From contig CACZAY010000027.1 in assembly GCA_902779265.1 (NCBI GenBank), forward strand, positions 1-43,044: 43,044 bases of DNA, read 5' to 3'. Of the stretch, positions 1 to 43,044 are shown piece by piece. Every line of letters starts with the position of its first letter. Position 1 is the stretch's first letter. Source of the stretch: an uncultured Bacteroidales bacterium. Its GTDB lineage: Bacteria > Bacteroidota > Bacteroidia > Bacteroidales > UBA3663. The translations under genes and the position numbers were made by a program. Below the pieces are notes generated by a model that was not told the origin of the DNA, did not search any database, and was given only the letters and a program-made list of their open reading frames with translations.

Positions 1-662
1 GTCACGCTCAATACACCCGTGAAGGCCGAACAGTCGCTCTCGAAGTCGCCGCGCACGTAGGGGAAGTTGATGGCCAATGTGCCTGCGCCCGTCAGTTTGG
101 AGATGGTTGTGGCCGATGCCTTTCCCGCGCCGAGCGTACCGCCCGCCTGCACCGTGACATTCTGCACCTGGCCGTCACCGCCGAGCTGGCCGCCGCTGCG
201 CACCGTGATGGTGCCCGTCGTGGTAGGGGCCGATGTATTCTGCGCCAAGATCTCGCCCGCATAGATATTGATGGGGCTGGCCGATGCGCCTGTCAGCGTC
301 AGCGTGCCGTCGCCGTATTTGTTGACCGTGGCCGATGAGCCGAACGTGCCGGCAAAGGTCTCGTCCGTGCCCAGATAGCCGATGTTCCAGATGCCCGTGC
401 CTAACGAACAGTCGGTGGCCGATGAACGCAGCGCGCCGATGCGTGCCGTACGGCTCGTCTCACTGCCGCTCTGGCTCGTGACATTGGCCACATAGACCCC
501 TGCACCCGGCTGCAACGTACCATTGGCCAAATCCAAGGCCGTCGTCACGCGGAACTGGCCGCTCGTCACGCTCAATACACCCGTGAAGGCCGAACAGTCG
601 CTCTCGAAGTCGCCGCGCACGTAGGGGAAGTTGATGGCCAATGTGCCTGCGCCCGTCAGTTT
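1..662 (-). CDS. C-terminal continuation (autotransporter-associated beta-strand repeat region) of the PL11 gene, in a different frame; runs off the window
   Basis: Frame starting at 662 reads KLTGAGTLAINFPYVRGDFESDCSAFTG...NKYGDGTLTLTG... with no stop seen before base 1; same repeat style as the upstream ORF. Confidence 0.75.
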
Positions 663-664
663 GG
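1..664. repeat. Exact 100-bp direct repeat (1-100 and 565-664)
   Basis: gtcacgctcaatacaccc...gcccgtcagtttgg occurs twice, offset 564 bp (in frame). Confidence 0.95.
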
Positions 665-3600
665 CTGGCCGCCGTTGACCGTCAGCGTCTTGTCCTCGCG
701 CACGTTGATGACATTGGTGATGACCGGCACGGCGCTCGTCGAGTTGTTGTTGAAGATGGTGAGCGCGGCGTTGCCCGTCACGTCGATGGTCGAGCCCGCA
801 CGGCCCAGGGTGGCATTCCATGCGCCCTGAGAGAGCGTACCGGCCGCGAGTATCGTGCCGCTGTAGCCGTTCGTGCCGCCATAGTTGAGGTTCAGCTGGC
901 CAGCGCCACGCTTGACGAGGACACCCGTACCCGTGAGGGCCGACTTGAGCGAGGTCGAACCGCTCGGGATGTTGAGCGTGGCCGTATCGGTGAGGACGAA
1001 ACTGCGGTCGGTCGCAGCGTTCGTGTTGTTGACGATGAGCGTCGCGCGGCCTATCTGGACCGTCGTTCCGGCGCCGAGACAGCTCTCCGTGCCGCGGTTT
1101 TCAAGGTTCTTGACCGATGTCGTTCCGCCGTTCAGGATGGTCTTGCCGGTATAGTCGCTGCGTGTCGCATTGAGCACGAGGCTGCCCGTGCCCTCCATCA
1201 CCAGGTCGCCCGAACCGCCGATGCCGCCCTCGCCCGTGAAGGTGTAGGTGCCGCTCGTGTGGGTCAGACGGATGCCATTGGCCACCATCTTATCACTCAG
1301 ATTGACAGTGCGTTGCGTGGACTCTTCGGGGAAGATGACCGCATCACCTGCGACGAACGAGGTTGCAGTGCCTGCCACGGTGAAGTTGTCGCTCTGGTAA
1401 TCCCAGTCGGCCGACTGCGCACCGCTCCAGGTGACGTCGATGGCGGCCTCGCGGGTGGCGCGAATGACGAGCACGATGTCCCGTTCGCGCACCTCGATGA
1501 CGTAGTTCAGACCCACCAGACCGCGCACCTTGATGTCAGCGGCATTGGCCGTCAAAGTCCCTGAACATGAGAGCAGTATGTATTCGCCCTCGCGCGGAGT
1601 CGCCTCGGCCGGGACGATGGAGAGCGTGTTGGTGTTGGCCAATGTCAAGTCGCCATTGACCACGATACGGTCGTTGCGCACCTCACCCTCGGTCTGGAGG
1701 TCGAGTTCGACATAGACACCGCCCGTGAGGGTCAGGTCGCCGCTCGTCGTGATGGTACCGAAGGGCGCATCGGCCGCGCCCGGAGCGAGTCGGCAGCCCT
1801 CGTAGTTCAGTCCACCCTCGAAGGTGACCGGACCGTTCAGGACCGCGTTGCCGGCCAGAGTGCCGCGGGCGCGCAGTTCAAGGTCATTGGCCAATGTTCC
1901 GTTCAAGGTCAACGTTCCCTCGCTGACGATGGTCTTGGCCGATGTCGCAATCGCACCATTCAAGGTGAAGTTGCCCGGCTGCGACTTGATGATTTCGCCC
2001 GAGCCCGCGATAGTTCCATTGGCCACAAAATCATGCCCCTTGGGGTTCATCATGTAGGTGGCCGATGGCTTGACCTCGCCCGTGATCTGGATGGCCGACG
2101 AGTTGTCGCCCGAGATGTCGAAGATGACACTCTGCCCGTCGCTGTAGGCCAATGCCTGCGTCTGGTCGAAGCTGGTGAAACTCTCTTGGCCAATGCCCCA
2201 CGCGCCAGAACGGTAGCGCGCCTCGGCCGTCAGCGTGGGCGGCAACGGAGGCAGCGGCATCTGTTCGCCCAGATAGAAGCCCGTGTTGGGATGCTGGTAG
2301 TAGCCGCGCGTGGTGCAGTCGCCGCGATAGTGTGGGTCCTGCTGGAGGCAGTAGATGCTGCGCGAAGTGGCGAGATTGGAGGTGTAGCCCACGAGTCCCG
2401 TGCTCTGCGAGTCATTCTGCTTGGCCAGGATGACCTCCTCGCGCCAGTCGCCCGTGATGTCGCCCATGAAGGCCGGACGCGTGCCTGTGCCGCCGTGGGT
2501 CGCCCAGCTGGACTCCTGCGAGAACTCGACGAGACGGCTCTTGCCGCGCACGGTCGTGACCATCAGGTTCGTGCCGTAGTTGCTGCCGCCCGGCGAAGAG
2601 AGTTCCTCGCGCAGGAGGTCGCCGTTCCACCACAGGCCCTCGAAACAGGTCGTGATACCCCACTGCGAACGGGTCTCGCCCGTCGCGTCGCCCTTGCTGT
2701 TGTAGATGTAATCGTCTGTGAAACTGTAGATTTCGTAGCCCTTGTGGTTCGGATCGACATCCATGCACGAGCCGCGTGCCACGTCGTAGATGGATGGCAG
2801 ATACCACTCCTTGATGCGCTCGCCCGTGGCCGCGTCATAAAGGCATTGGCCCAACAAGGCCGACTGCTGGATGGCATATCCCTCCAGGCCCGGACGGTCG
2901 GGGTCGATGTCGCTGATGATGAAACGGTCGCCGTGGGCCAGGCCGGTCGAGGTGTAGCGGTTCTGGGCCGGATTCACGCCGTAGCCGCCCGCCCACATCT
3001 CGTCGCAGCCGTCGCCGTCGCTGTCCAGGATGCGTATCTGGTGGAACTCGGCGCAGCCCGGACGGATAGGATTACGCACCCACGTGTGGCTGTGATGCCA
3101 GTTGGACGCAACGCCATTGGCCCAATCGAAATCCCACGTCAGGATGTAGCCGTGGTGCAGCTTGGTGTTGTCGCGGTCCTCACACTCCATGATGAGTGAG
3201 GGATGCACGCCGTCAAGATAGGCGATGCCGTAGTGGCCCACCATCGCGCCATATTCGAAACTCATGTAGTCCGCGCGGTTGTCACGGCTGTAGTTGTCAC
3301 CGCCTGCGCCTTCGCTCAGTTGGCTGTATATCAGTTCGTTTGTGGCCAATTCCGCTCCCGTCGCTCCGTCGATGACCGAGATATAGAACGGCGGATTGCG
3401 CCGAGTCTGCGTGCGGTAGTCGATGATGCCGTCATTGTCGGTGTCGGCCGATGCACTTCCGCCCACATACGCGCCCCAAGTCTCATGGGCCTTGTCCCAG
3501 AACCGCGTGCCGTCCGACGAACGGATGATGACCTCGCATCGGCCATCACAGTTGATGTCATAGGCCAGGACCATGTCGTTCTGACCGGCGCAGATGTTCA

Positions 3601-4237: not shown

Positions 4238-4269
4238 GATGTAACAGTTAAGTGTCGTAATTTTTGCTG

Positions 4270-4370
4270 CAAAGGTATCGATTTTGCCATTCTTCGCGGT
4301 TAAAAATAGTAACAAAGACGTACAAAATCGTACCAAACGGCACATTTTTGCCGAAAAAATGTTACATTTG
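4270..4370. promoter_or_regulatory. Divergent Bacteroidetes -7 promoter boxes
   Basis: TACCTTTG on minus strand (4270-4277) and TACATTTG on plus strand (4363-4370) match TAnnTTTG. Confidence 0.65.
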
Positions 4371-4400
4371 TGGCCGAAAACGACCGTTTCTCGCATTTTT

Positions 4401-6857
4401 ATGTATCAAAATCTAAAATCCGCCCTTTTTCTCCTCTCCGCGTGGCTCCTGTCATGCAGTGCGGTTCTTGGCCAATGCCTCGGCTATCACCCGCTGCCCA
4501 CCCAGGCCCAGCTGCCCGTGGCCGATGTCGATGTCATCATGCAGGATGCGGCCGGATTCATCTGGTTCGGCACGGCGGGCGGCGGTCTCTGCTGCGACGA
4601 CGGCTACAGCGTCACGGCCTGCAACAGCGAGACGGCCGGACGCAGCGTGATGAAGAGCGACGACGTGACCTGCATGGCCGAGGACAGCCTGCACCGCATC
4701 TGGTTCGGCACCCGCGCGGGACTCTACACGCTGCGCCGGGACATCGGCCAATGCCAACGCATTGAAAACGAACAGATCGGCGACCGCAAGGTGAACTGCA
4801 TCGCCGTCACGCCCGATGGTGCCGTCTGGGTCGGCCTCAGGCAGAACATTCTGAAGTTTTCGGCCGATGGCTCCCTCGTGAAGACGCTCTCCATTGGCCC
4901 CAACAGACGCCAGGAGCCGCGCGAGATGACCGTCGATTCCCGGGGCACGCTGTGGGTCACCGTCCTGCGCGGCGGCCTGATTACCATCGACCCGGCGACC
5001 GACTCGCTCACCCACCAGCCGTGGGACTATCCATCGGCCGCAAGCTACATTGCCGAAGACACCGTGCGCCACTGCTACTGGGTCGGCACATGGGGCGGCG
5101 GCATCGTGCGCTATCCCGCGATGCAGGTCGAACCCGCCACACTGCAATCCGTTGACCGCCACAAGTTTGGCAGCGAGGTCTATAACCTCTGGCTCGACCA
5201 CGAGAGCCGCCTCATGTGGGTCGCCACGATGGACGATGTCTATGCCTACCGCATGAGCGACACAATCCGCGAGGGCGAGCCGTGTCTCTCGACGTTCTCA
5301 TTGGCCAATGTCATTCCATCGGGCAAAAAACTCATCAACAAGCTCATCGCCGACCGGCGCGGAAATATCTGGGTGCCAGGCCGTTCGCCGCACACCTTCA
5401 TCATCACGGGCAGCCACGCCAGCGGCCGCATCCGCCGCGACGCCGTCCCAGCCATGACCCAGCAGGTCGGCTACCGCCTCATGGCCGAAAAAATCGCCAG
5501 CGAGGGCAGCTACTACTGGATCTACCAGAACCGCACGCGCCTCTCGCTCTACGACGCCACGACGGGCCAGCTTGCCTTTATGGCCAATGACGCCCGCCCC
5601 ACGCCCCTCTCCACCCAACGCCCGCTCGCCCGCTGCCGCACGATGGCCGGCGTCTGGACCTGCAACGGCAAACGCCTCGTCCACGCCTGGCACGACGGGA
5701 TGACCATCCATTGGGAGGAGGTGGCCGATGCCCTTCTCCCGCACTACATCTCGGCCCTCAGCGACGAGGGCGACGGCCGCCTGCTCATCGGGACGGAGCG
5801 CGAGGTCTTCCTCTACAACTACCGCGACAGTTCGCTCCAGAAGTTGGCCGATGCCGAGGCTGTCGTCCACCAGGTCGGGTTCGGGGCCGATGGCATTCTC
5901 TCCTACTCCACCGACGCCCAGGCCGCCCAGACCGTGACCGACGCCATCGGCCACATCTGGACCCTCAACCAGCTCTCCCTCACCGAGTTCAGTCCGCGCA
6001 CAGGCGCCACGCGCACCCTGCGGCCATCGGACAGGAACATCGCCATGGACTCGTTCACCGACATCACCCGAGCCGGCGACAGCATCTGTCTGGGCGGCAT
6101 CGGCGCGTTCTGCATCATCGGCTCCTGCCGCGAACTGGACTCGCCGCGCGACCTCGGCCCCTGTCTTGTCACCCGCTACGACACGCTGCGCGCCGTCCAC
6201 CTCTCAACGATGAACCACGCCCACGCCGCCGACGTCCACTTTGCCTACCGTTTCCGCCCGTCGGACGCATGGACGGAACTGCCGGCGGGCCAGAACGTCA
6301 TCGGACTGACGGACATCGGCCACGGGAAGACACCGCTTTACGTGCGCGCGACCGACGAATACGGCCTCTGGAGCCGCGAGCAGATAGTCCTCTCCATCTC
6401 GCGTCCCTGGCCTCTGCGTCCGTGGAGCCTTGCCATCGCCATCGGCGCCCTGATTCTCTACGGCTTGTGGGCGTGCCGGTTCCCATTGGCCAAAAACAGG
6501 ATGATGACGATGATGGCCGATGCTCCAGCCCGCCAGGACCCGCATTTCATGGAGCGTGTGGAGGCCCTCGTGAGCCGCAATCTGGCCAATGTCGATTACG
6601 GCGTGGACGAACTGAGCCGCGACCTCTCGATGAGCCGCATGAACATGTACCGCCGCTTTCAGGCCGAGTCGAGCGTCACGCCCTCCGAATACATCCGGCA
6701 GTACCGCCTGCGCCGCGCCTCCGAACTGCTGCGCACGACCACGAAGTCGGTCACCGAGATCGCCTACGAGGTCGGATTCACCTCACCGCAATACCTTGCC
6801 AAGTGCTTCCGCGACGAGTTCGGCATCACGCCCCGCCAGGCGCGCGGTGAGAGTTGA
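4401..6857 (+). CDS. Membrane-anchored AraC-family regulator (HTCS-like beta-propeller sensor + Y_Y_Y-like + TM + AraC HTH; no kinase or receiver)
   Basis: QDAAGFIWFGT, EDSLHRIWFGT, DRRGNIW propeller repeats; TM helix; TEIAYEVGFTSPQYLAKCFRDEFGITP. Confidence 0.85.
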   Translation: MYQNLKSALFLLSAWLLSCSAVLGQCLGYHPLPTQAQLPVADVDVIMQDAAGFIWFGTAGGGLCCDDGYSVTACNSETAGRSVMKSDDVTCMAEDSLHRIWFGTRAGLYTLRRDIGQCQRIENEQIGDRKVNCIAVTPDGAVWVGLRQNILKFSADGSLVKTLSIGPNRRQEPREMTVDSRGTLWVTVLRGGLITIDPATDSLTHQPWDYPSAASYIAEDTVRHCYWVGTWGGGIVRYPAMQVEPATLQSVDRHKFGSEVYNLWLDHESRLMWVATMDDVYAYRMSDTIREGEPCLSTFSLANVIPSGKKLINKLIADRRGNIWVPGRSPHTFIITGSHASGRIRRDAVPAMTQQVGYRLMAEKIASEGSYYWIYQNRTRLSLYDATTGQLAFMANDARPTPLSTQRPLARCRTMAGVWTCNGKRLVHAWHDGMTIHWEEVADALLPHYISALSDEGDGRLLIGTEREVFLYNYRDSSLQKLADAEAVVHQVGFGADGILSYSTDAQAAQTVTDAIGHIWTLNQLSLTEFSPRTGATRTLRPSDRNIAMDSFTDITRAGDSICLGGIGAFCIIGSCRELDSPRDLGPCLVTRYDTLRAVHLSTMNHAHAADVHFAYRFRPSDAWTELPAGQNVIGLTDIGHGKTPLYVRATDEYGLWSREQIVLSISRPWPLRPWSLAIAIGALILYGLWACRFPLAKNRMMTMMADAPARQDPHFMERVEALVSRNLANVDYGVDELSRDLSMSRMNMYRRFQAESSVTPSEYIRQYRLRRASELLRTTTKSVTEIAYEVGFTSPQYLAKCFRDEFGITPRQARGES

Positions 6858-10015: not shown

Positions 10016-12847
10016 TTATTTCTCCATGACAATCAGGTTGATGCCTTGACTGAGGCCGGCTGGAATAAGCACTTGGTCGCGCCGCACGAACGGGATGTCG
10101 CCGTACTTCTCGATGCCGGGCGAGGTACACAGGGCCGCCTTGTCGCCACGATTCTGGTTGAGGTCGCCCACCAGACGGTTGCGCCACGGATTGGTGAGCC
10201 GCAACTTGACGGGGAACGTGCATTGGCCCTTCTTGCTTTGGCCGATGCAGGTCGCAACGGCATCGGTGATGTCGAGCGCGTAGGTCGGATCCCAAACCGT
10301 GCCTAGATCGGAGTTGCCCACCCAGACGTGAGCCGTCGCACCCAAGGCCGGCAGGTTCAGTTTGAGGCGTTGGCCAATGTATTTCTCCGGCAGAGTGAGC
10401 GTCAGGTCGTATTCGAGCACGCCGCAATAGTATTTGATGTCGGGATTCTTCGATTCGGTGATGTCGCGTAGTTCGCTGATTTTCTGCGTCTTAATGTCTT
10501 TGTCCGATGGGAATGACAGCCGTCCGTCGGCCTTCGTGATGTGGAGCGTCTCGACGATGGCCGGAGCGAGCACTTCACGGTCGTACGAGGCATCGGCCGC
10601 AACCTCCTCACCGAAGAGGACAATGACCGCCTGACGTGGGCGCAGTTTGATGCGGTAGGCTCCGTCGCGGGGCGTCATCGCGTAGCGTCGGCCATCCATC
10701 GGGTCGAGCAGGACGGCACTGCGACCGACCTCGCGCGTGAATGTCACATCGGCCATCAACTCCTTGTCGTCCTGCATGTTGGCCAAGAAATAGGCATCCT
10801 TTCCGGCCCTCTTGCGGTGCAGGTAGTTGATGCGGCTGTCGTCGGCCTTGTCGGCAAAAACGACCTCGCGCTTGACCTCGGGCGCGGGCAGGAAATCGTT
10901 GTCGCCCCAGATTTCATTGGCCAACCGCAGCACTTCGGCCGATTCCTCCGCGTGGTTCAGCAGTCCGAGCGAGGCGACGGGTTTCACGCCGCACACCTTG
11001 GCTCCGGCCTTGTGCAGCGCGTGCAGTTGGCGCATGGTCAATAGGTTGATGGCCGATTGCCGCACGATGATATATTGATAATCAATGCCTTTCAGGTGCG
11101 GCCGCTGGATGACCAGCCGTCCGTCGCGGACTTGGGTTTCGGCCAATGCCTCGGCGTTGATGTACTGGTATTTCTGACCTTCGGGGATGAGGCGGGCAAG
11201 TTCGTCGGCCTTGCATTCGTTGGCCGGACGGCAATCGCCGATGTAGATCAGCGCATCGGCACACCGCTGTGCACCCTGCATCTGCTCCTGAATGCGCTGC
11301 TGCCATGTCCAGTAGGGCAGCGACTCGTTGAACCACGGATTCAGGCGGTTGAAGGCTTGGCCATAGATGCCGAGCGTGAAGCCCGGGCCGCGATCTTGCA
11401 TCTGGTGCACGTAAGAATGGAGCATCATCTTGCTCACGCCCTCCGAGTAGGCCTGGTTGGCGTATGGCACCAAATCCCACGGTGATTCGCTGTAGATGGC
11501 GGCACCGGTGTAGGCTTCGCTGGCCAAGATGGGTTTGTCGTAGAGCAGCGCGGCGTGCTGTGGCAGGATGTGGTTGAACGGCGCGGTGACCTTCGATGTG
11601 ATAGGGGTCTGCATGGCCTGCAGACGCGCCCAGAACTCGGTCATCGGCACGTCGCAGTACTTGTAGGTCGCCATGATGTCGCAGCCCGGAATGTCGTCCT
11701 TGCCGCCGTAGATGCCCTCGCTGTAGAGCAACATGCCGTTGGCGTGGCACAGGTCGGCCAAGTGCTTGAAGAAGTATTCCTCGATGAGTTCGCCGAGGGT
11801 GAGCCGGTAGTCGTGGATGAAGGCATCGCACGTTGTCGCGTCGAAGATGGCATCGCCCGCAAGCACAGGCAGATAGGGCAGCATCGAATAGCCGCGCCGT
11901 CTTGCAAACTCTTCGGGCAGGTGTTTCGTCCACGTCTGCAGGCGGCACTCCCAACTGTCCACAAGGAAGTAGGAGAACGTCTTGCCGCAATGCCGTCCGG
12001 CGGCCTTCATCACGTCGCGGTTGTAGTGGGCGAAATGCAGATTGAGGGCGGTGGTGTCCATCTTGTCGCACTCGAAACCGGCGCCTTCGGGTGAGGCCGG
12101 ATGGGTCTTCTGTCCCGTCGTGGTGTAGCCGAAACGCAGCACTTCGAACCGTTTTACCTCGCTGCTCAGGATGGAGAACTGCAATTCGGCTGGCACGGTC
12201 AGCACTCCGCGCTTGGCGTCAAGATAGGGCGTGAGGTCTTTCACATCGGCCAATGTCACAGCCCGCTTCAGCCCCACGGGATAGGCCAGCACGCACACGT
12301 CCTCGTAGTAGTTCGCCTTCGTCTCGGGCTGTGGCAGTTCGATTTCCATGCGTCCGTCGGCCAGACTCTGCAGTTCGCTGGCCCCCGTAATCAGCACTTT
12401 CGCGTAGGTGATGCCCTTCATCGAGTTTTCGGGCGCAATCCATGGGCCGCCGGTCTCGCTCCAGCCGTCGCAGTTGGCCGTGCCGATGGTCATGCCGAGA
12501 CGTTCTGCCTCGTCCAATGCCCAACGGAAAAGGTCGTACCACTCCGGCGACGCGAATTTCGCCACGGGCCAGGCCGACTCGTCGATGTCGCGCATATTTT
12601 CGGGTGCGACGTATTTTTCAAATGCCTTGAACTGCGATCCGAACGGCCGATAGACATTGAGGATTGTGGCATTGTCGATGCCGTTGGCCTTCATGGCTTC
12701 GAGGTCTTTGGTGATGCCCTCGCGGGTGATGTGGCCGTTCATCCAGTGCCACCATGTACCTGTGGCCGATGGCGTCTGGGCATTGGCCGTAAACAATGTG
12801 GCCGACAGTGCGGCGGTGGCGATTGCGGTGCGGAGATGGGTGCTCAT
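10016..12847 (-). CDS. Glycoside hydrolase family 106 (alpha-L-rhamnosidase-like)
   Basis: Signal peptide; WWHWMNGHITREGITKDLEAMK, GWSETGGPWI, DSWE, VPMTEFW, SEAYT motifs. Confidence 0.85.
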   Translation of the reverse strand: MSTHLRTAIATAALSATLFTANAQTPSATGTWWHWMNGHITREGITKDLEAMKANGIDNATILNVYRPFGSQFKAFEKYVAPENMRDIDESAWPVAKFASPEWYDLFRWALDEAERLGMTIGTANCDGWSETGGPWIAPENSMKGITYAKVLITGASELQSLADGRMEIELPQPETKANYYEDVCVLAYPVGLKRAVTLADVKDLTPYLDAKRGVLTVPAELQFSILSSEVKRFEVLRFGYTTTGQKTHPASPEGAGFECDKMDTTALNLHFAHYNRDVMKAAGRHCGKTFSYFLVDSWECRLQTWTKHLPEEFARRRGYSMLPYLPVLAGDAIFDATTCDAFIHDYRLTLGELIEEYFFKHLADLCHANGMLLYSEGIYGGKDDIPGCDIMATYKYCDVPMTEFWARLQAMQTPITSKVTAPFNHILPQHAALLYDKPILASEAYTGAAIYSESPWDLVPYANQAYSEGVSKMMLHSYVHQMQDRGPGFTLGIYGQAFNRLNPWFNESLPYWTWQQRIQEQMQGAQRCADALIYIGDCRPANECKADELARLIPEGQKYQYINAEALAETQVRDGRLVIQRPHLKGIDYQYIIVRQSAINLLTMRQLHALHKAGAKVCGVKPVASLGLLNHAEESAEVLRLANEIWGDNDFLPAPEVKREVVFADKADDSRINYLHRKRAGKDAYFLANMQDDKELMADVTFTREVGRSAVLLDPMDGRRYAMTPRDGAYRIKLRPRQAVIVLFGEEVAADASYDREVLAPAIVETLHITKADGRLSFPSDKDIKTQKISELRDITESKNPDIKYYCGVLEYDLTLTLPEKYIGQRLKLNLPALGATAHVWVGNSDLGTVWDPTYALDITDAVATCIGQSKKGQCTFPVKLRLTNPWRNRLVGDLNQNRGDKAALCTSPGIEKYGDIPFVRRDQVLIPAGLSQGINLIVMEK

Positions 12848-23801: not shown

Positions 23802-23922
23802 ATTCTTCAAGGGTTGATGAGGGCGTCGAGGGGCGTGTTTCCATGCGTGGGGGGATGACGGCCAATGTCCATTTCCCGCCGCTGCGAGTCCCCCGTCAGA
23901 CCCTTCCTGAGTAAAAATCGCG

Positions 23923-24033
23923 CAAAGATACTCATTTTAAATTTATTCATTGGCCTTTTCGCTGAAAAATTTGAAACGTCGGCCGATTTTCCTCGAAAAA
24001 CAGATGCGATTCCGAAAAAATTCCGTATCTTTG
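23923..24033. promoter_or_regulatory. Divergent -7 boxes for nadE and rnz
   Basis: TATCTTTG on minus strand (23923-23930) and on plus strand (24026-24033). Confidence 0.65.
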
Positions 24034-24109
24034 TGGCCGATTGTCCGAAGCCGAGACCCGAATGACACGCGGCCGATGGGCATTGGCCAACACACACACG
24101 ACACATCAC

Positions 24110-25045: not shown

Positions 25046-25080
25046 ACTACGCGAGCAAAGAATCGTTGGCCGAAATTCAA

Positions 25081-25176
25081 GTATCGACCCTTTTCACTTC
25101 TTGAACTCCGCGAGTGAAAATCATCGGTCGAAACCCAAGTATCGTCCCTTTCACTCCCCTTAAACGCCCTTAAACA
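25081..25176 (+). repeat. GTATCGTCCCTTT-(TCACTCC)n pyrimidine-rich repeat
   Basis: Two copies (25081, 25139); related to 30309-30350, 30584-30650 and 31947-32002. Confidence 0.65.
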
Positions 25177-25178
25177 CA

Positions 25179-25832
25179 ATGCACATCGCAATCGCAGGCA
25201 ATATCGGCTCCGGCAAATCGACGCTCACGCGCATGTTGGCCAAGCACTACGGCTGGGAACCAAAGTTCGAGGCTGTGGCCGACAATCCATATCTGGAGGA
25301 CTACTACGCGGATATTTTGCGCTGGTCGTTCAATCTGGAGGTCTATTTTCTGAAACACCGTTTCGAGGATTTGCTCGACATCGCCCGATGCGGCCACGAC
25401 GTGATCCAGGACCGCACAATCTACGAGGGCGTCTATGTGTTTGTGGCCAACAACTACGCGCAGGGCAACCTCTCGCGGCGCGACTACGAGACCTTCATGG
25501 CACTGTTCGAGCAGATGATGGGACTTGTGCCCGAACCCGACCTGATGATTTATCTGCGCGCCTCGCTGCCCCACCTTTTCAGCAACATCCAGCGACGCGG
25601 CCGCGACTACGAACAGAGCATCAGTATCGACTATCTGCAAGGCGTGAACGAACGCTACGAGGATTTCATCGCCAATAAATATCATGGCCGCGTGCTGATC
25701 ATCGACAAGGATCCGCTCGACTTCGAACATAATCCGCTCGACTTCCGCTCGATTACCGACAGGATCGATTCGGCACTGTTCGGACTGTTCGACCCCCTCC
25801 CGACCTCCCCGAGGGGAGGGGACAGACCCTAA
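25179..25832 (+). CDS. Deoxynucleoside kinase (copy 1), C-terminus extended by REP sequence
   Basis: GNIGSGKS P-loop, QDRTIYE, PDLMIYL, RGRDYE. Confidence 0.92.
   Translation: MHIAIAGNIGSGKSTLTRMLAKHYGWEPKFEAVADNPYLEDYYADILRWSFNLEVYFLKHRFEDLLDIARCGHDVIQDRTIYEGVYVFVANNYAQGNLSRRDYETFMALFEQMMGLVPEPDLMIYLRASLPHLFSNIQRRGRDYEQSISIDYLQGVNERYEDFIANKYHGRVLIIDKDPLDFEHNPLDFRSITDRIDSALFGLFDPLPTSPRGGDRP
25791..25821 (+). repeat. REP element inside the 3' end of dNK1
   Basis: gaccccctcccgacctccccgaggggagggg. Confidence 0.85.
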
Positions 25833-26186
25833 CCCCTGACCTCTGCCCCTCAGCTAAAGCTTCGTCTTCTCGCTGAACGATTATCAATCGTTCTATTCGA
25901 TGCGAGGGTCCCGTTATGTAGGGGAAGGGAGTAAATACAAAAGGCTGTTAGGGTTATGGCCAACGGCTCACGACCACAAAACGGCGGGTTGGGACTGCCA
26001 TAGTGGAGCGGCCGACCGCAAAAAAGTGAGGATTGCGAAGCGGTAAGCCTTGTTTGAGGCCGACAGGCCGAGTTTGGCTTACAAGCGAGCGAGGCCACCT
26101 TTTTGCAGGCCGCGCAACGTAAGGCTTGACTTTCTTTGCTTACTTTCTTGTGTTAAGACAAGAAAGTAAGTGCCCTCCGCACAGGA
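25824..26186 (+). repeat. Structured dispersed element, copy B (with ~70-bp insertion in its first hairpin region)
   Basis: Aligns to copies A and C; 13-bp stem at 26139-26170. Confidence 0.9.
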
Positions 26187-26215
26187 GAATAAAGTAATTT
26201 GTAATTCATAAATAT

Positions 26216-26827
26216 ATGCACATCGCAGTTGCCGGAAACATCGGCTGTGGCAAGACCACATTGACCAAAATGTTGGCCAAGAGATATGGCTGGAAACCCA
26301 ATTTTGAGCCAGTTGACAACAATCCGTATTTGGCTGACTACTACGCGGATATGAAGCGTTGGTCGTTCAACCTTCAAGTCTATTTCCTGAGCAAACGCTT
26401 CAAGGATGTAGTCGAAATTTCGCGTAGCAAGGAAATCATCATCCAAGACCGCACCATCTTCGAGGATGCACGTATTTTCGCCCCGAACCTGAACGAGATG
26501 GGCATGATGGAAGACCGTGATTTCCAGAACTATTCCGACCTCTTCGACCTGATGATGAGCCTCGTCAAGCTGCCCGACCTGATGATCTACATCCGCAGCA
26601 GCATCCCGAACCTCATCGCCCAGATCGCCAAGCGTGGCCGCGACTACGAACAGACCATCCGCATCGACTATCTGACCGGCCTGAACAACCGCTACGAGGA
26701 GTGGATTTCATCGTACAAGGGCAAGGTCATCATCATCGACGGCGACACCTGCAAGTTCGAGACCAACCCCGAAGACTTCCTCAAGGTGACCGACCAGATT
26801 GACTCGGCCCTGTTCGGCTTGTTCTGA
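26216..26827 (+). CDS. Deoxynucleoside kinase (copy 2)
   Basis: GNIGCGKT, QDRTIFED, PDLMIYI, RGRDYE. Confidence 0.93.
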   Translation: MHIAVAGNIGCGKTTLTKMLAKRYGWKPNFEPVDNNPYLADYYADMKRWSFNLQVYFLSKRFKDVVEISRSKEIIIQDRTIFEDARIFAPNLNEMGMMEDRDFQNYSDLFDLMMSLVKLPDLMIYIRSSIPNLIAQIAKRGRDYEQTIRIDYLTGLNNRYEEWISSYKGKVIIIDGDTCKFETNPEDFLKVTDQIDSALFGLF

Positions 26828-26870
26828 TGCACGACAAATATTTTTGTTTGTTTAAGACTCATTTTTGTGT

Positions 26871-28268
26871 ATGCCAGAAATCAAATACCAATATGCATTC
26901 ATCGATGGAGATAATATAGTTTCCATTGATGAAATAACAGAAGATAACCGCAGCCAATACAAGTTTAGGTGCATTGGCTGTGGTAAAGAACTTTTGCCTC
27001 GTGCAATTAATAGCATATATAGAAGAGCGCATTTTTATCATAAAGAATTGGCAGAATGTTCTGGAGAGACTTATTTGCACAAACTTGCAAAAAAAATTAT
27101 TAAAGACAAATTTGACAACTCGAAGGAATTCCTGGTAGAATATTGTGTTAATGAGACCTGCAGCCAATCTGAATGTAATTACAGAACAATTAGATGCACA
27201 CAAAATCATTTATGCCAAACTGTAGATTTAAAGCAATTTTATGACACATGCACAGAGGAAGTTCCAATAGATGATTATATTGCAGATTTGTTGCTAACTA
27301 ATAGCATAGAACCAAATGTGCCTCCAATTTTGATTGAAATATGGGTATCCCATAAGTGCGACGAAGAGAAAAGGGAATCAGGTCTGAAGATTATCGAAAT
27401 AAAAATAAAGGATGAGCAGGATATAAAAGATTTAGGCGACAAAAGCAAGCTGTGCGAAAGTGAAAAGATTAAATTCTATTCTTTTAAGAGGGAGAAAGTA
27501 AAAAAACATCTGACAAAGATTCAGAGATTTTTGTATAATCCGAATTTAGGAAGTAATGGTTGTTTGACAGAAGTAGACTGTTCTATGGCGTCATACAAAG
27601 TTAGGTCAAATTCTCTTGTCGAACTTAACATTATAAATTCAGATAATTATGGAAAATGCGATATTTGGGAACCTTTAATATGGATGTCATTACATAAGGG
27701 ATTGCGTCGATGTAATATGTGCAAATTCTATTATGCGACGCAATATGAGTCTTCTGCGAAGTGTAGATTGAGTACAAAATATGGAAAGCCAGAATATCCT
27801 TCTATGGATGAAGCTGATAGGTGTAGCAGTTTTTCTGTTGACAAACGAAGAACTGCTTGTATAAGTTCTTTTTCTTTCGAAGAAGTAACATTAAATCCTT
27901 TGTCAGAAAAGCCTGAATATAAAGTTATAATTGCAGTTGGTCGTTATTTTGATGATTATAATTTATTTAAGAAAAAAATATTGTATTTTTTGTCCGAAAA
28001 AATTAAAACACATTTAATTGTTGTTATTCAATTTGATTCAGATTCTTACTTTATAAAACAATTATCAAAAGATTTGGAATTTATCATAGAACCACATAGT
28101 GCAGAATGGGGAAGGTATGGTTCACATGCCATTAAGGTTTCTAATGATGAAATGACTACTGAAGCAGATGCATTAATCGCTTTTTGGGATGGGAAAAGCA
28201 TTGGTATTGGAAATTTAGTAAATCAAGCCAAAAAAAAAGGAATTAAATACGCCGTAATAAATTATTGA
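26871..28268 (+). CDS. AT-rich CoiA-like Zn-finger/PD-(D/E)xK nuclease fused to a C-terminal DUF2493/YpsA-like SLOG domain
   Basis: CIGC...HFYH...ETYLHKLAK; IADLLL...ILIEIWVSH; KVIIA..R.FDDY, AEW..YG, N..M, DALIAFWDGKS.G. Confidence 0.7.
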   Translation: MPEIKYQYAFIDGDNIVSIDEITEDNRSQYKFRCIGCGKELLPRAINSIYRRAHFYHKELAECSGETYLHKLAKKIIKDKFDNSKEFLVEYCVNETCSQSECNYRTIRCTQNHLCQTVDLKQFYDTCTEEVPIDDYIADLLLTNSIEPNVPPILIEIWVSHKCDEEKRESGLKIIEIKIKDEQDIKDLGDKSKLCESEKIKFYSFKREKVKKHLTKIQRFLYNPNLGSNGCLTEVDCSMASYKVRSNSLVELNIINSDNYGKCDIWEPLIWMSLHKGLRRCNMCKFYYATQYESSAKCRLSTKYGKPEYPSMDEADRCSSFSVDKRRTACISSFSFEEVTLNPLSEKPEYKVIIAVGRYFDDYNLFKKKILYFLSEKIKTHLIVVIQFDSDSYFIKQLSKDLEFIIEPHSAEWGRYGSHAIKVSNDEMTTEADALIAFWDGKSIGIGNLVNQAKKKGIKYAVINY

Positions 28269-28280
28269 TTTCTCTGTTAG

Positions 28281-28931
28281 TCACGACAGCGTCATCGCCA
28301 CCACTGCACCCCAGTGGAACAGCGTCCCGAGGATGACGTGGATGTGCCAGATGCCGTGATAGTAAGGATGTTGCGGCTCCTTGTCGTGCACGAAGAAATA
28401 GACGCCCGACGTGTAGGCCACACCCTCCATCAGAATCAGCGTGATGGCGCGCAGGTCGATGCATTCGCGCACCGACGGGATGATGTAGAGAATCGACCAG
28501 CCGAGCACCAGATAGAGCACCAATGAGGTCTTGGCCAACCGCTCGAACAGGAAGATTTTCAGGAAGATGCCCGTGAGCGACAGTGCCCAGATGATGCCGA
28601 AAGCCGTCCAGCCCGCCACAAAATGGTCGTCTTCAATCAGGCCCATGCAGATCGGCGTGTAGCTCGATGCGATGAGAAGATAGACCGAACAATGGTCCAG
28701 GATGCGCAGCGACCGCTTGTTGCTGGCGTCGGGTCGGCTCCAGTGATAGAAGCACGAGGCCAGATACATGAGCAGCATACCCACGGTGAAGAACGTCGCG
28801 CCGAAAGCCATCTCCCAGTTCTTCGAGTAGCCCAACCAAATAATCACCCACGCGATGCAGGGCACCAGACAGAGCCCTACCGTGTGGGTGATTGCGCTGA
28901 ATTTTTCGCCTTTGCTGTGCTTGATGCTCAT
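28281..28931 (-). CDS. Hemolysin III / PAQR family membrane protein
   Basis: E..SAITH, SCFYH, LDH.SVYLLIASSYTP, YLVLGW, HGIWH.HV. Confidence 0.9.
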   Translation of the reverse strand: MSIKHSKGEKFSAITHTVGLCLVPCIAWVIIWLGYSKNWEMAFGATFFTVGMLLMYLASCFYHWSRPDASNKRSLRILDHCSVYLLIASSYTPICMGLIEDDHFVAGWTAFGIIWALSLTGIFLKIFLFERLAKTSLVLYLVLGWSILYIIPSVRECIDLRAITLILMEGVAYTSGVYFFVHDKEPQHPYYHGIWHIHVILGTLFHWGAVVAMTLS

Positions 28932-28947: not shown

Positions 28948-30294
28948 TTATAGATTCTTCATCAGGAATGCCTTGAAGTCGGCAAATTCGCCAGACATCG
29001 GGAGCGACTGCTTCGTGCCGTTCATGAACTTCTGTAACGTGGCAGGAATCTCGACCTTCTGGCCGATGATCGGTTCGACCGTATCCTTGAACTTGGCCGG
29101 ATGTGCAGTTTCGAGGAAGACGCCGACCTCACCTGCGCGGAGTCCATCGACCAGAGCCTGATAGCCGCATGCGCCGTGTGGGTCGCAGACGTAGCCGTCG
29201 TTCTTCAATGCCGACTGCATGGCCTTCTTGATCTGCTCGTCGTTGTAGGTTGCACCGCTGATTTCGCGGCAGATGGCCTCATGAGCCTCCTCGGGCGTGA
29301 TTTCACGCTTCAGCTGCTGGCCGCCGCCATACAGGTTGACGATGCGGGCGAAGTTCGACGGAGCACCGACGTCCATCGCATTGGCCAATGTAGCCTGCGT
29401 GGCACGTGGGTTGTAATGACCATCGGCCAAATACTGGAAGAAGATGTCGTTGGCGTTGTTCGATGCGATGAAACGCTTGACGGGCAGGCCCATCTTGGCT
29501 CCGAACAGGCCGGCGCAGATGTTGCCGAAGTTGCCCGACGGCACGCAGATCACTACGTTGTCGGCTTTGCCGGCCTTCTTCAGCTGTGCGTAGGCGTAGA
29601 AATAGTAGAATGCCTGTGGCAGGAACCGCGCTACGTTGATTGAGTTGGCCGATGTGAGGAAGAACTTGTCGTTCAGCTCCTTGTCCATGAATGCCTCCTT
29701 GACCAGACGCTGGCAGTCGTCGAACACGCCATCCACTTCAAGCGCGGTGATGTTCTGGCCGAGGGTGGTGAACTGCTTCTCCTGGATTTCGCTCACTTTG
29801 CCCTTCGGGTAAAGCACCGTCACGTCGATGCCGGGCACGCCGAGGAAGCCATTGGCCACAGCCGAACCCGTATCGCCCGATGTGGCTACGAGCACGTGTA
29901 CGTTGCCCTTGGTGCTTGGGTGCTGCTTGACGAAGTAGCTCAACAGACGGGCCATGAAACGCGCGCCGACGTCCTTGAATGCGCAGGTCGGGCCGTGATA
30001 GAGTTCGAGGCTGTAGATCTGCTCGTTGACCTTGACCAATGGGATGTCGAACTGGAGCGTGTCATAGACAATCTGCTTGAGGTCGGCCTCCGGGATGTCC
30101 TCGCCGAAGAATGCCTTGGCCACCTCGAACGAGATTTCCTGCAATGTCATGTCCTGCATCCGCTCGAAGAACGATGCTGGCAGCGGATTGATGCGCTCGG
30201 GCATGTAGAGACCCTTGTCGGGGGCCAATCCCTTGATGACGGCATCGCTGAGGGTGACCTCAGGCGCGATGCGGTTGGTGCTGTAATATTTCAT
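28948..30294 (-). CDS. thrC: Threonine synthase
   Basis: GLAPDKGLY, LELYHGPTCAFKD, ATSGDTG, SANSIN, PSGNFGN, TAHPAKF. Confidence 0.96.
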   Translation of the reverse strand: MKYYSTNRIAPEVTLSDAVIKGLAPDKGLYMPERINPLPASFFERMQDMTLQEISFEVAKAFFGEDIPEADLKQIVYDTLQFDIPLVKVNEQIYSLELYHGPTCAFKDVGARFMARLLSYFVKQHPSTKGNVHVLVATSGDTGSAVANGFLGVPGIDVTVLYPKGKVSEIQEKQFTTLGQNITALEVDGVFDDCQRLVKEAFMDKELNDKFFLTSANSINVARFLPQAFYYFYAYAQLKKAGKADNVVICVPSGNFGNICAGLFGAKMGLPVKRFIASNNANDIFFQYLADGHYNPRATQATLANAMDVGAPSNFARIVNLYGGGQQLKREITPEEAHEAICREISGATYNDEQIKKAMQSALKNDGYVCDPHGACGYQALVDGLRAGEVGVFLETAHPAKFKDTVEPIIGQKVEIPATLQKFMNGTKQSLPMSGEFADFKAFLMKNL

Positions 30295-36040: not shown

Positions 36041-37374
36041 AGTTTTATATTTTCTTTTGTATCAATAATGTGTAGTCCTAAATCTTCATAATCAACTCTT
36101 TCTGCGTGCAGCATCAGTCGCGTAGCGGGCTTGGCAAAATAGAGCACATCGCCCACAATCGGATGGTCGAGGCCGAACGGCGAGGCCGCATGGAGCCGCA
36201 GCTGGTGCGTCCGACCCGTGACGGGGAAAAATTCGACCAACGTAGTTTTTTCATTGCGGCCAATGACGTTGTAGCGCGTCACGGCCTCCTTGCCGAACTG
36301 CCAATCCACCGTCTGTCGCGGACGGTCGTCGGGATTCGGGCAGATGGGCAGCGAAATCACACCGCAATCGCTTGGCAGCGAGCCTTCGAGCAGGGCCACG
36401 TAGCGTTTGCGGATTTTCTTTTGCTCGAACGCCAGCTGCAACTCCTTGTGCGTCTGCGCATCCTTGGCGGCCAACAGCAATCCCGAAGTCGCCTGGTCGA
36501 GCCGATGCACCAGCATGAAGGGCAGACGGCAGTCGGGATAACGCCGTTTCAGCCAGCTTTCGACGTTGGCCAATGTCGTGTCCTTGGCCGGCACGCTGAG
36601 CATTCTGGCCGGCTTGCTGACGGCGACCATCCGCTCGTCCTCGTAGATGATTTCCGGCTCGTCAGTGCAGCTTTCGACGCTTGGAGCATCGGCCAATGAA
36701 TCTCCCAACATGAACGACAGCAGCGGACTGCATTTCTCGATGCAGCTCGGATAGAATTGCCCATGCACGCGGCGGATGTTGCGCGGGCTGCGACCGTACC
36801 AGAATTCGGCCAATGCGACAGGTTTCAATCCGCGGCTGAAGGCCGCCTGGAGCAATCTCGGTGCGGCACATTCGCCGGTTCCGCCCGGGGGCAGGCCGCG
36901 CTTGGCATCGGCGAAAATCTGAACGATGTTGCGGTATGTGCCATCGGCCGAAACCACATCGAAATGGCGGAAAATCTCGCGTTGCAGGGCGATGCTCATC
37001 TCGCGGCGCATCTGGCGAAGTCCGGCAAGTTCATCGTTGTGCGTTTTTTTGTTGTCGGCCAATGCTTCAATCTCGCCGATTTTTCTGTTTATCTCGCTGA
37101 TTTCCGCATCCTTGCGCAGGTAGAAGTCATCGGGCGCGGCGAGGTCGTAGATGGGCGGCACGAAGTATCCGTTGGGGTCGCTCAGGCCGTTCACCACGCC
37201 GCTGTAGGCGCGTAGCACGGTCCCGTCGTCGCACAACAGCACGCCGAGCATCTTGCCCTGTTCGAACAGCGGTGCCCAGTCGGGACATTGGCCGATGTAC
37301 AAACAAAGTTCATCCGCAGCCCTCTTCAACAAGGGATGCGGATGATACAGATATGGGTTATTGATGTTTGCCAT
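36037..37374 (-). CDS. RluA-family pseudouridine synthase (long Bacteroidetes form)
   Basis: GKMLGVL, PPGGTGECAAPRLLQ, VHRLDQATSG, TGRTHQLR. Confidence 0.9.
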   Translation of the reverse strand: MANINNPYLYHPHPLLKRAADELCLYIGQCPDWAPLFEQGKMLGVLLCDDGTVLRAYSGVVNGLSDPNGYFVPPIYDLAAPDDFYLRKDAEISEINRKIGEIEALADNKKTHNDELAGLRQMRREMSIALQREIFRHFDVVSADGTYRNIVQIFADAKRGLPPGGTGECAAPRLLQAAFSRGLKPVALAEFWYGRSPRNIRRVHGQFYPSCIEKCSPLLSFMLGDSLADAPSVESCTDEPEIIYEDERMVAVSKPARMLSVPAKDTTLANVESWLKRRYPDCRLPFMLVHRLDQATSGLLLAAKDAQTHKELQLAFEQKKIRKRYVALLEGSLPSDCGVISLPICPNPDDRPRQTVDWQFGKEAVTRYNVIGRNEKTTLVEFFPVTGRTHQLRLHAASPFGLDHPIVGDVLYFAKPATRLMLHAERVDYEDLGLHIIDTKENIKL

Positions 37375-42099: not shown

Positions 42100-42135
42100 G
42101 AAATTCCCAGTTGGGCAAAACCGTAATTTTACAAT

Positions 42136-42825
42136 ATGAACAACGAATTCTATAAGTTCGCCACGTGCAATGCAGGCGTCAACGGCCACATGCTGGACGA
42201 CTATATGCGTTTCCAGAGCAAGACGTTGCAGCCGCGTGCATCGTACATAAACCCAAGCATCATCGAAGAGCGCCAGCTCAATGTCGCCCAGATGGATGTC
42301 TTCTCGCGCCTGATGATGGACCGCATCATCTTCCTCGGCACCGAGATTGACGAATACAGCGCCAACGTCGTACAGGCACAGCTGCTGTTTCTCGCGTCGG
42401 CCGAGGGCGACAAGGATGTCGTGATGTACCTGAACAGTCCCGGCGGAATCGTGAGCGGCGGATTGGCCATCTACGACACGATGAACTACATCTCGTGCGA
42501 CGTCTCGACCGTCGTGACCGGTATGGCCGCCTCGATGGCATCGGTGCTGCTCGCTGCCGGAACCAAGGGCAAGCGTTTCGCCCTGCCGCACAGCCGCGTG
42601 ATGATTCACCAGCCGTTGGGCGGCACTCAGGGTCAGGCCAGCGACATGGAAATCGCCGTCAACGAAATCAAGAAGCTCAAGGGCGAGCTTTACCAGATTT
42701 TGGCCGACTGCACCAACCAGCCGATTGACCGCATCGAGCGTGATTGCGACCGCGACCACTACTTGACCGCGACCGAGGCTCTTGAATATGGAATGATTGA
42801 CAAGATTTTTGAGAAGAAAAGATAA
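42136..42825 (+). CDS. clpP: ATP-dependent Clp protease proteolytic subunit
   Basis: DVFSRLMMDRIIFLG, YLNSPGG, GMAASM, MIHQP, DRD. Confidence 0.96.
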   Translation: MNNEFYKFATCNAGVNGHMLDDYMRFQSKTLQPRASYINPSIIEERQLNVAQMDVFSRLMMDRIIFLGTEIDEYSANVVQAQLLFLASAEGDKDVVMYLNSPGGIVSGGLAIYDTMNYISCDVSTVVTGMAASMASVLLAAGTKGKRFALPHSRVMIHQPLGGTQGQASDMEIAVNEIKKLKGELYQILADCTNQPIDRIERDCDRDHYLTATEALEYGMIDKIFEKKR

Positions 42826-43044
42826 ATGGCAGGAAAAAGAAACGAAGATAGATGCAACTTCTGCGGCCGTGGCCGTGGCGAAGTGAATCTGCTGATTTCC
42901 GGAATCGACGGCTACATCTGCGACGAGTGCGCCGAACAGGCTCATGCCATCGTCAACGAGGCCTTGAAGCAGCATGACGAGCATTCGTCGGCTATGGACA
43001 TGGACTTGAGCGAACTGCCCAAGCCGAAGGACATCAAGGCATTC
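42826..43044 (+). CDS. clpX: ClpX ATPase subunit, 5' part (runs off window)
   Basis: MAGKRNEDRCNFCGR...LLISG..GYICDEC...LPKPKDIK zinc-binding domain, immediately after clpP. Confidence 0.92.
   Translation, partial: MAGKRNEDRCNFCGRGRGEVNLLISGIDGYICDECAEQAHAIVNEALKQHDEHSSAMDMDLSELPKPKDIKAF

Follow-up and report, generated by a model that had tools for sequence, protein, structure and literature searches.

The 43,044-nt stretch analyzed here, which is the entire contig CACZAY010000027.1 (C27; hereafter the window) of an uncultured Bacteroidales bacterium (assembly GCA_902779265.1; hereafter G000), is densely filled with copies of a short asymmetric word, GGCCRATG, most often preceded by a pyrimidine. 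The abundance of YGGCCRATG is a genome-wide phenomenon at the level of DNA and goes beyond codon usage. It almost certainly reflects a lineage-specific directional process acting on the DNA, with gain of copies, some maintenance, and a cost to proteins. All types of ordinary point substitution contribute to the copies that this process generates; both strands are affected, and copies appear wherever constraint permits. Modest evidence indicates that the process then also keeps them. In genes, copies are placed only in reading frames that proteins tolerate, and still at an amino-acid cost.

Abundance in the window and in the genome

The G000 assembly (2,801,557 bases in 221 contigs, 83% complete) contained 8,764 copies of GGCCRATG (4,348 forward and 4,416 reverse), corresponding to 3.1 per kb or about one per 320 bases, compared with 135 copies (60 + 75) of the reversed control word. 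This density of 3,128 per Mb is 32-49 times the expectation from base composition, and the four most frequent 8-mers of the genome were CATTGGCC, GGCCAATG, GGCCGATG, and CATCGGCC. At least one copy per kb was found in 167 of the 169 contigs of at least 5 kb, indicating that the signal belongs to the genome rather than to one contig, as the original prediction, which was made from the letters of the window alone, had proposed.

In the window, GGCCRAT occurred 183 times, compared with 16.6 expected from shuffles (standard deviation 3.85, largest shuffle 26), and the 12-mer CATYGGCCRATG, in which two copies share one GGCC, had seven matches, compared with 0.03 expected. The local observations of the original prediction were borne out. 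Its estimate of about 30 half-sites in bases 1-4240 corresponds to 32 counted copies of GGCCRAT, its ~62% GC to a value of 0.62-0.63 in the first 4 kb (0.546 in the G000 assembly), and its six 12-mers were all confirmed, with a seventh in addition (Table 1). The intergenic sites that it named are also present, namely the six at about 23850-24090 and those at 8681, 12888, 17126, 21641, and 34587.

Contigs from four independent public ruminant-gut studies cover positions 1-20000 of the window, the listed pieces differing from it at ~1-8% of positions; therefore, a one-off assembly artefact is ruled out. The stretch was also present in public metagenomes (20 rows from 14 studies). Among the 40 listed of 1,271 strain differences from public runs, none fell inside an 8-mer, where about one was expected.

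Copies in genes and codon usage

Genes were modelled with a crude codon-score picker of open reading frames (ORFs), which gave 1,787 ORFs and 81% coding DNA; most gene counts below use the 1,473 ORFs scoring at least 40. About three quarters of the copies of the word fall in genes, in frame. The 6,442 copies observed in genes compare with 851 when synonymous codons were shuffled within genes, 1,499 under a dicodon model that kept the amino-acid sequence, and 359 when the codon order was shuffled, so that the enrichment survives the dicodon control and the earlier claim that codon usage is insufficient holds. The codon choice inside the word departs from that of the genome: AAT and AAC stand at 1223:171 in the context G-GCC-_-G, compared with 9,598:23,238 overall.

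The copies in genes are locked in frame, with GCC as a codon in either orientation (nCA-TYG-GCC, 2,613 copies; nnG-GCC-RAT-Gnn, 2,568 copies). Of the remaining four classes of frame and orientation, three held 67-259 copies each, and the sense CATYGGCC in frame 2 held 843. The LAN, SAD, ADA, and TLA peptides with TTG and TCG codons that the original prediction had described as imposed by the motif were borne out.

These counts bear on the explanation that the word is an artefact, whether of codon or dipeptide usage, of GC content, of misassembly, or of contaminating DNA. Codon or dipeptide usage as the origin is ruled out by all of the null models together with the denser AT-rich spacers, since spacers of 20-150 bp (GC 0.39) carried 7.3 copies per kb, compared with 3.1 per kb in genes. 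The dicodon model does yield 1,499 of the 6,442 coding copies, and congeners show a mild 3-8-fold excess of the word over the reversed control, which may be codon-driven (GCC-GAT-G). However, every null falls short of the count, the excess is missing in 400 other genomes of the order (see below), and contigs of four independent studies carry the first 20 kb of the window. We therefore consider this explanation refuted, with a negligible residual probability.

The repeated unit

A position table of all copies showed eight specific positions and a pyrimidine at position -1 (83-90%), with nearly uninformative flanks beyond. Single substitutions in the word cut the count 10-40-fold, except for A/G at position 5. 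The 27,154 GGCC sites of G000 included 7,736 with one arm and 512 with two arms, compared with 707 two-armed sites expected if the arms were independent. Two-armed sites are no commoner than independence predicts, which rules out the 12-mer palindrome as the unit. Because the two halves of the palindrome behave independently, the repeated unit is the asymmetric 8/9-mer (Y)GGCCRATG. Consequently, the likeness to HIP1 (highly iterated palindrome 1) of cyanobacteria and to uptake sequences, with which the original prediction had begun, stands as far as density and behaviour are concerned; the unit itself is not a highly iterated palindrome.

Around the 12-mers, sequence preference extends weakly to G-N-CATYGGCCRATG-N-C (64-66% for G), and a longer palindrome that contains spacer copies, GACATYGGCCRATGTC, occurs 21 times. 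Variants with T that are one substitution away from the word were not selectively depleted, except for GGCTAATG (n = 12), the scarcity of which may stem from a general rarity of CTAA.

Distribution among relatives

The relatives of G000 are uncultured Bacteroidales metagenome-assembled genomes from ruminant and horse guts; one of them, Candidatus Liminaster caballi, has 88% PNPase identity. Across the 39 genomes of the genus, the 10-mer CATTGGCCAA was found 1,739 times in G000, 389 times in its sister species G032, 81 times in G039, 4-55 times in 34 others, and 0-3 times in G001 and G002. The corresponding counts of the 8-mer were 8,764 in G000, 5,299 in G032, 1,193 in G039, 511 in G014, and 40 in G001. 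In a survey of the order (401 genomes, 236 genera), the next highest totals were ~1,000-1,170, in genomes of 4.4-4.9 Mb. A comparable excess was thus absent from the 400 other genomes of the order and from the 38 congeners, among which only the sister G032 is intermediate. The original prediction had spoken of a signal of a Bacteroidales genome; it is indeed not equally strong across the order, and it is confined to one species lineage rather than being a property of the order or the genus.

No hyper-abundant 8-mer of any kind was found in samples of G014 (200 kb), G039 (106 kb), G001 (39 kb, small), or G005 (35 kb, small). Because the sampled congeners lack any such word, the word is a trait of one lineage and not a member of a family of dialects. 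Viral sequences were scanned for closely spaced inverted pairs, which gave at least 117 stretches; none of the 80 loci inspected was motif-dense (median 0.41 per kb), a result without bearing on phages of the G000 host.

The word is close to absent from G001, G002, G020, G026, G076, G191, and other members of the genus and the order, at 0-40 copies versus 110-270 of the reversed control. This near-absence resembles the avoidance of a restriction target, GGCC or YGGCCR, and, because several relatives nearly avoid the word, enzymes aimed at the GGCC/YGGCCR core seem to circulate in the group.

Gain and maintenance in comparison with the sister species

Alignments with G032 were made by BLAST, using non-overlapping high-scoring segment pairs chosen greedily, of at least 300 bases for mosaic and site counts or at least 500 columns for window tests; site-level comparisons used sites that were free of gaps and away from alignment ends. 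The pnp gene of G032 is 96% identical to that of the window, compared with at most 84% in other congeners, and a G032 contig shows synteny with the window (90-98% identity). A 500-kb sample of G032 proved to be a mosaic, with about one fifth at 88-98% identity to G000, ~30% at 70-85%, as in ordinary congeners, and the rest unaligned. The near-identical blocks span tens of kb, and 53 kb or more of this DNA is in synteny with the window. This mosaic suggests a large recent introgression; a chimeric bin is less likely, at 4% contamination.

In segments of 92-100% identity, both genomes carried ~3 copies per kb, with 178 shared sites, 17 found only in G000, and 12 found only in G032. In segments of 60-85% identity, G000 carried 2.4-3.5 copies per kb and G032 0.9, with 80 shared, 463 G000-only, and 79 G032-only sites. 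In these diverged segments, differences between the G000 sites and G032 involved each of the eight positions and every substitution type, including transversions, and gaps accounted for only ~3% per position in alignments of orthologous sites.

The gains extend into proteins. An amino-acid difference was present at 216 of 275 G000-only coding sites, compared with 948 of 1,896 control windows, and at codon positions 1 and 2 of the diverged segments 20.4% of bases differed inside sites versus 15.6% in flanks (p = 3e-8). The recoding can be followed in pnp, which was compared at 20 of 29 relatives' loci, all of them complete. Beside an Ala GCC, Ser is encoded by TCG, with GCA before it in place of the GCT of most congeners (ASA), and Leu CTN has become TTG in a TLA site.

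Evidence for maintenance is more modest. In low-identity segments, 67 of 153 G032 sites were intact in G000, where ~11% would be expected at 24% divergence. In high-identity segments, third codon positions differed at 66 of 729 positions inside the word and at 562 of 4,456 in flanks (9.1% vs 12.6%, p = 0.006). A conservation test within the window alone was not significant (identical 8-mers 0.811 vs 0.737, n = 90). These results indicate that the lineage gains the word and, more modestly, keeps it.

The two species also differ at position 5 of the word. G000 favours GGCCAATG (4,899) over GGCCGATG (3,865), and the G032 sample favours GGCCGATG (453 vs 216); among differing sites in diverged segments, G in G032 with A in G000 was seen 65 times and the reverse 10 times. 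This could be a shift of the preferred word or a C-to-T change at the CpG of CATCGGCC.

Placement along the genome

Between well-scored genes (spacers of 30-300 bp), convergent spacers carried 13.0 copies per kb, tandem spacers 5.5, and divergent spacers 3.1. A sharp peak lies 3-20 nt past stop codons, with CATYGGCC at +7 (52 genes) and GGCCRATG at +11 (34 genes). The copies at the peak sit between the stop codon and real terminator hairpins and do not form the hairpins themselves. Their contexts are full or extended palindromes, a T-run followed by GGCCRATG, CATYGGCC followed by an A-run, and inverted pairs 0-6 nt apart. Inverted pairs at 8-14 nt accounted for ~160 of the 8,545 neighbouring pairs. 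Forward post-stop copies keep phase with the upstream frame for ~30 nt (+11, +14, +17, +20), as inside genes.

After TGA, where no prolonged open frame follows, this phase preference was at its strongest, and read-through or recoding behind it is for that reason unsupported. As a separate observation, the same frame stayed open longer past TAA and TAG stops of G000, with a median of 24-25 codons compared with 12-17 in the other two frames, and it was open for at least 60 codons in 24-27% of cases versus 13-17%; no such effect was seen after TGA. Split genes or pseudogenes, assembly errors, or faults of the crude gene model are possible reasons for these longer frames.

The two strands carried about equal numbers of copies on each of the eight largest contigs, and the correlation with GC skew was 0.37 (54 windows). 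A polarity like that of Chi, FtsK-orienting polar sequences (KOPS), or architecture-imparting sequences (AIMS) is ruled out, as there is no skew with the replication strand. Even short-range spacing was likewise not found in G000: the gaps between copies had a median of 172 and a coefficient of variation of 1.39, and counts in 600-bp coding windows were over-dispersed (variance-to-mean ratio 1.29).

Density fell with GC content: it was ~4 per kb where GC was 0.56-0.60 and only 0.28 per kb where GC was under 0.42. Recently acquired DNA lacks the word. Three low-GC methyltransferase genes of G000 contained no copy, and neither did the low-GC stretch at 25.0-28.9 kb of the window (Table 1), which holds too few near-sites for the absence of the word to inform on a rate. 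Its 467-aa protein had only a sub-threshold match to CoiA_N and none in NCBIfam or PADLOC.

The placement is relevant to two further explanations. The copies could be selected binding sites of an abundant DNA-binding protein, whether nucleoid-structuring, marking DNA as self, or acting as a transcription or 3'-end factor, with selection on the number or placement of sites. The strong preference for positions past stop codons in phase with the upstream frame, the somewhat conserved synonymous positions in the word, and the weak extended consensus of the 12-mers would all fit such sites. However, thousands of genic sites in both orientations and at an amino-acid cost are hard to justify singly, close congeners manage without the word, there is neither strand polarity of the Chi/KOPS kind nor regular spacing, and no candidate protein was found. 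Selected binding sites are accordingly an improbable source of the word.

Alternatively, the copies could be relics or insertions of a small palindromic repeat, such as repetitive extragenic palindromes or bacterial interspersed mosaic elements (REP/BIME) with their REP-associated tyrosine transposases (RAYT), the NTS repeat with Ssn nuclease, or a miniature inverted-repeat transposable element (MITE). Some spacer copies do lie within longer palindromes (GACATYGGCCRATGTC), copies cluster at gene ends, and the same genome holds a family of ~200-bp hairpin repeats. Against this, the sequence flanking the 8-mer is nearly uninformative, some three quarters of all copies lie in frame within genes, and sites arise by substitution, with few gaps. 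Moreover, no match to the Y1 transposase (PF01797) or GIY-YIG (PF01541) families was found in the incomplete G000 assembly. Mobile or copied elements are therefore very unlikely, and for the coding copies they are close to refuted.

Search for candidate machinery

The original prediction had suggested a search for a GGCC-type methyltransferase, dnd or ssp genes, and competence genes that accompany the motif. No match to the C5 methyltransferase family (PF00145) was found in G000, at 83% completeness, and DndC (TIGR03183) had no match in any of the five genomes searched, so that neither of these leads was substantiated. Five PF01555 methyltransferases were identified in G000, of which three look foreign. 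A native-looking orphan of this family (contig C24; 310 aa, YhdJ/PRK11524-like) has full-length orthologues in 35 of the 39 genus genomes, conserved throughout and with no swapped recognition region, and as the determinant of the word it is unsupported given these orthologues. A 919-aa ORF of G000 gave a weak PglX-like match.

G000 also encodes one standalone Vsr mismatch endonuclease (contig C48), which has native composition, looks long-resident, and has no methyltransferase beside it. Across the genus, Vsr was found in 20 of 39 genomes and C5 methyltransferases in 17 of 39, and neither tracks motif density. Five low-motif species (G014, G003, G010, G040, and G011) possess full-length homologues of Vsr with 48-61% identity. 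A link to C5 methyltransferases is unsupported, since none was found in G000 and the 17 genomes that have one show no relation to density. None of the genes found explains the trait. The GIY-YIG search detected a UvrC-like ORF of ~650-700 aa in three of four relatives and none in G000. With even UvrC unmatched in an assembly of 83% completeness, little weight can be placed on gene absences in G000.

These findings enter most directly into the explanation by a ratchet like that proposed for the highly iterated palindromes (HIPs) of cyanobacteria. According to this model, an enzyme recognises YGGCCR(ATG), and modification-directed or sequence-directed repair keeps mutations that complete a site and corrects those that break one, so that the word arises as a side effect of repair or serves as one of its tools. 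The density of 3,128 per Mb is at or above that of cyanobacterial HIPs, for which 500-2,500 per Mb are given (PMC4390886). The palindromic YGGCCR core with Y at -1, the independence of the arms, the Poisson-like or over-dispersed placement, and the higher density where constraint is low are all in line with a ratchet, and the resident native Vsr and the conserved orphan PF01555 methyltransferase are candidates for its components. In addition, under Elhai's model a recognition site can be gained through a change at any of its positions (PMC4390886), and a cognate enzyme could be missing from an assembly that is 83% complete.

On the other hand, no cognate enzyme was found, Vsr and C5 methyltransferases do not follow density across the genus, and the orphan methyltransferase is shared by nearly all congeners with its recognition region unswapped. 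The unit is asymmetric, unlike HIPs and the sites of type II methyltransferases, and T variants are not selectively depleted, GGCTAATG excepted. Because transversions occur at every position, Vsr alone cannot produce the gains, and a ratchet driven by Vsr only is ruled out by this spectrum of all substitution types and by Vsr in low-motif congeners. The word also peaks after stop codons, whereas HIP1 is described as having no gene-position preference (PMC5861425). Taken together, a HIP-like ratchet is possible and ranks second, and we regard it with some doubt.

A possible molecular drive by DNA exchange

The explanation that we rank first, tentatively, is a molecular drive of the uptake or recombination type. 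A DNA-exchange protein acting in the uptake, processing, or recombination of conspecific DNA would prefer fragments with the asymmetric word, and alleles gaining a copy would consequently be transmitted and fixed more often than alleles losing one. The putative recogniser would have to act without a type IV pilus. This drive is placed first because of the asymmetry of the word, its habits of lying 3' of genes and in inverted pairs, the large DNA exchange between the two lineages, and self-preferring transformation in Bacteroidota. Riemerella columbina, a member of this phylum, is naturally competent and prefers its own DNA, with no uptake sequence known to be defined for it (PMC7965970). The near-identical parts of G032 carry a density like that of G000, alongside active DNA exchange between the lineages.

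Several observations weigh against uptake-type drive. Introgressed segments would be motif-rich under any mechanism. Classical uptake sequences occur at ~1 per kb, and the density here is about three times that. An uptake drive with diminishing returns per fragment would be expected to tend to even spacing, and over-dispersion was observed instead. Arms that share one GGCC behave independently, as a purely local process would give, and YGGCCR is a typical target of restriction-modification. The word is strongly avoided in some relatives, with 40 copies versus 166 of the control in G001 and 3 versus 172 in G020. The conservation signal is modest, at 0.811 versus 0.737 in the window alone (n = 90). 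Finally, no gene shows competence of this lineage. The pilus/type II secretion ATPase family (PF00437) had no match above cut-off in any of the five genomes tested, and ComEC was present in all five, in high-motif and low-motif genomes alike; the competence genes suggested by the original prediction as partners of the motif thus do not discriminate between genomes with and without it.

It is possible, albeit rather unlikely, that this pilus-less lineage of gut Bacteroidales has a new sequence-specific step of exchange or repair, in which a putative YGGCCRATG recogniser biases the alleles taken up, recombined, or repaired, with ~1 in 40 bases rewritten, proteins included. Such a bias might also channel the large-scale introgression between G000 and G032. 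That a process other than all of those listed here produces the word has a small but appreciable probability.

Comparison with known systems

To our knowledge, work on hyper-abundant short words has been confined to three bacterial groups, Neisseriaceae, Pasteurellaceae, and cyanobacteria. The DNA uptake sequences (DUS) of Neisseriaceae and the uptake signal sequences (USS) of Pasteurellaceae concentrate at the 3' ends of genes and in inverted pairs; the word in G000 clearly shares the former habit, and its inverted pairs at 8-14 nt make up only ~160 of 8,545 neighbouring pairs. Like them, it is a short asymmetric word that is hyper-abundant on both strands and in both orientations within genes, frame-restricted in genes with excess protein change, scarce in foreign DNA, and present in a weaker form in a sister lineage. 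Coevolution of uptake sequences with the proteome has been described for USS (PMC2817400). Unlike DUS and USS, the word reaches ~3 per kb, has a palindromic YGGCCR core, and is over-dispersed, no type IV pilus ATPase gene was found in five genomes, and most sampled congeners lack an abundant word instead of having dialects.

HIP1 (GCGATCGC) and the alternate HIPs of cyanobacteria have a density in the same range or lower and, like the word, a GC-rich palindromic core. HIP1 is conserved beyond codon effects (PMC5861425), as is the word here, modestly. Both occur sporadically in single lineages, as exemplified by the 'exceptional HIPs' GGCGCC, rCCGGy, and GCsGC (PMC4390886). Unlike HIPs, the unit here is not palindromic, and no cognate methyltransferase was found in the 83%-complete assembly. 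Regular spacing is also lacking here, a comparison that concerns short range only in a draft of 221 contigs, the reported periodicity of HIP1 being on the kb scale. A strong preference for positions 3' of genes further distinguishes the word from HIP1, for which no gene-level positional association was found (PMC5861425). The word behaves as a hybrid of DUS/USS and HIP. The pilus and receptor that characterise the former are not known here, and the palindrome that characterises the latter is not the unit.

Very-short-patch repair by Dcm and Vsr raises CCWGG in Escherichia coli by T:G to C:G correction at one position, with small excesses. G000 has a long-resident-looking Vsr gene in common with this system. 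In contrast, all positions and substitution types contribute here, the search of G000 for a C5 methyltransferase gave no match, congeners with little of the motif also have Vsr, and T variants are not generally depleted. The NTS of Neisseria, a 28-nt extragenic hairpin in hundreds of copies, operates with the single-strand nuclease Ssn (PMC11893778). It resembles the word in being an abundant lineage-specific sequence tied to DNA exchange and in that the palindromic core of the word can form a hairpin; unlike it, the word is an 8-mer in thousands of mostly genic copies, and no GIY-YIG gene was found in G000. Phosphorothioation of GGCC by the Dnd system differs in that dndC is absent from all five genomes searched.

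In the literature covered, with subscription journals outside its range, we found no account of this word, or of any uptake or HIP-like sequence, in Bacteroidales, in agreement with the statement of the original prediction that it knew of none. The word would add Bacteroidota as a fourth phylum, with an independent case in an abundant ruminant-gut lineage. The mechanism of HIP1 is still disputed after 30 years. Here, the word forms a comparative gradient, being extreme in one species, intermediate in a partly introgressed sister, and absent as an abundant word in 37 congeners, so that the causal gene should be findable by association given complete genomes. The gradient also allows drive to be separated from selection by means of public metagenomes. 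The word is furthermore a practical marker of native versus foreign DNA in G000, which could aid binning and the detection of introgression. If it were a true signal of uptake or self-recognition, it would bear on DNA exchange among gut Bacteroidales and on the delivery of DNA into uncultured members.

Other features of the window

Table 1. Sites of the word and further features located in the window
Feature	Coordinates	Strand	Remarks
GGCCRATG field	1..43044	both	152 copies (85 on +, 67 on -), ~3.5 per kb, in genes and spacers
Double-armed site CATTGGCCAATG	1885..1896		
Double-armed site CATCGGCCAATG	4742..4753		
Double-armed site CATTGGCCAATG	5299..5310		
Double-armed site CATCGGCCAATG	12244..12255		
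Double-armed site CATTGGCCAATG	29379..29390		
Double-armed site CATCGGCCAATG	36687..36698		
Double-armed site CATTGGCCGATG	37286..37297		Missing from the list of the original prediction
AT-rich divergent spacer	23860..24088		Six GGCCRAT sites; between NAD synthase gene (-, ends 23810) and metallo-beta-lactamase-fold gene (+, from 24041)
Inverted pair GGCCGATG-GG-CATTGGCC	24071..24088		Example of convergent pairs at 8-14 nt start-to-start
Motif-free low-GC stretch	25038..28931		3.9 kb (GC 0.40 at 26-28 kb); two paralogous deoxynucleoside kinases, 467-aa Cys-rich protein, HlyIII-family protein; 94-97% identical in G032
~200-bp repeat, inverted pair	21440-21655; 25954-26149	+; -	Flanks 4.3 kb; ~92-94% identical; also on G000 contigs C8, C23, C22

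The ~200-bp repeat family listed in Table 1 is separate from GGCCRATG; G000 holds five or more copies of it, and the G032 sample holds six. A long hairpin with imperfect pairing is predicted for the repeat (z -2.3 and -3.4), which had no Rfam match; from its sequence, it looks like a MITE or a small RNA.

The window also harbored a pectin-degradation set (659-4396, 10019-12916, and 17358-19412), consisting of a rhamnogalacturonan lyase family 11 protein with a weak PATR repeat match, a GH106 alpha-L-rhamnosidase, and a Pel9A-like beta-helix protein, adjoined by an AraC-type hybrid regulator and an Mfa-like fimbrillin. This gene set is consistent with a plant-fibre-degrading member of the gut Bacteroidales.

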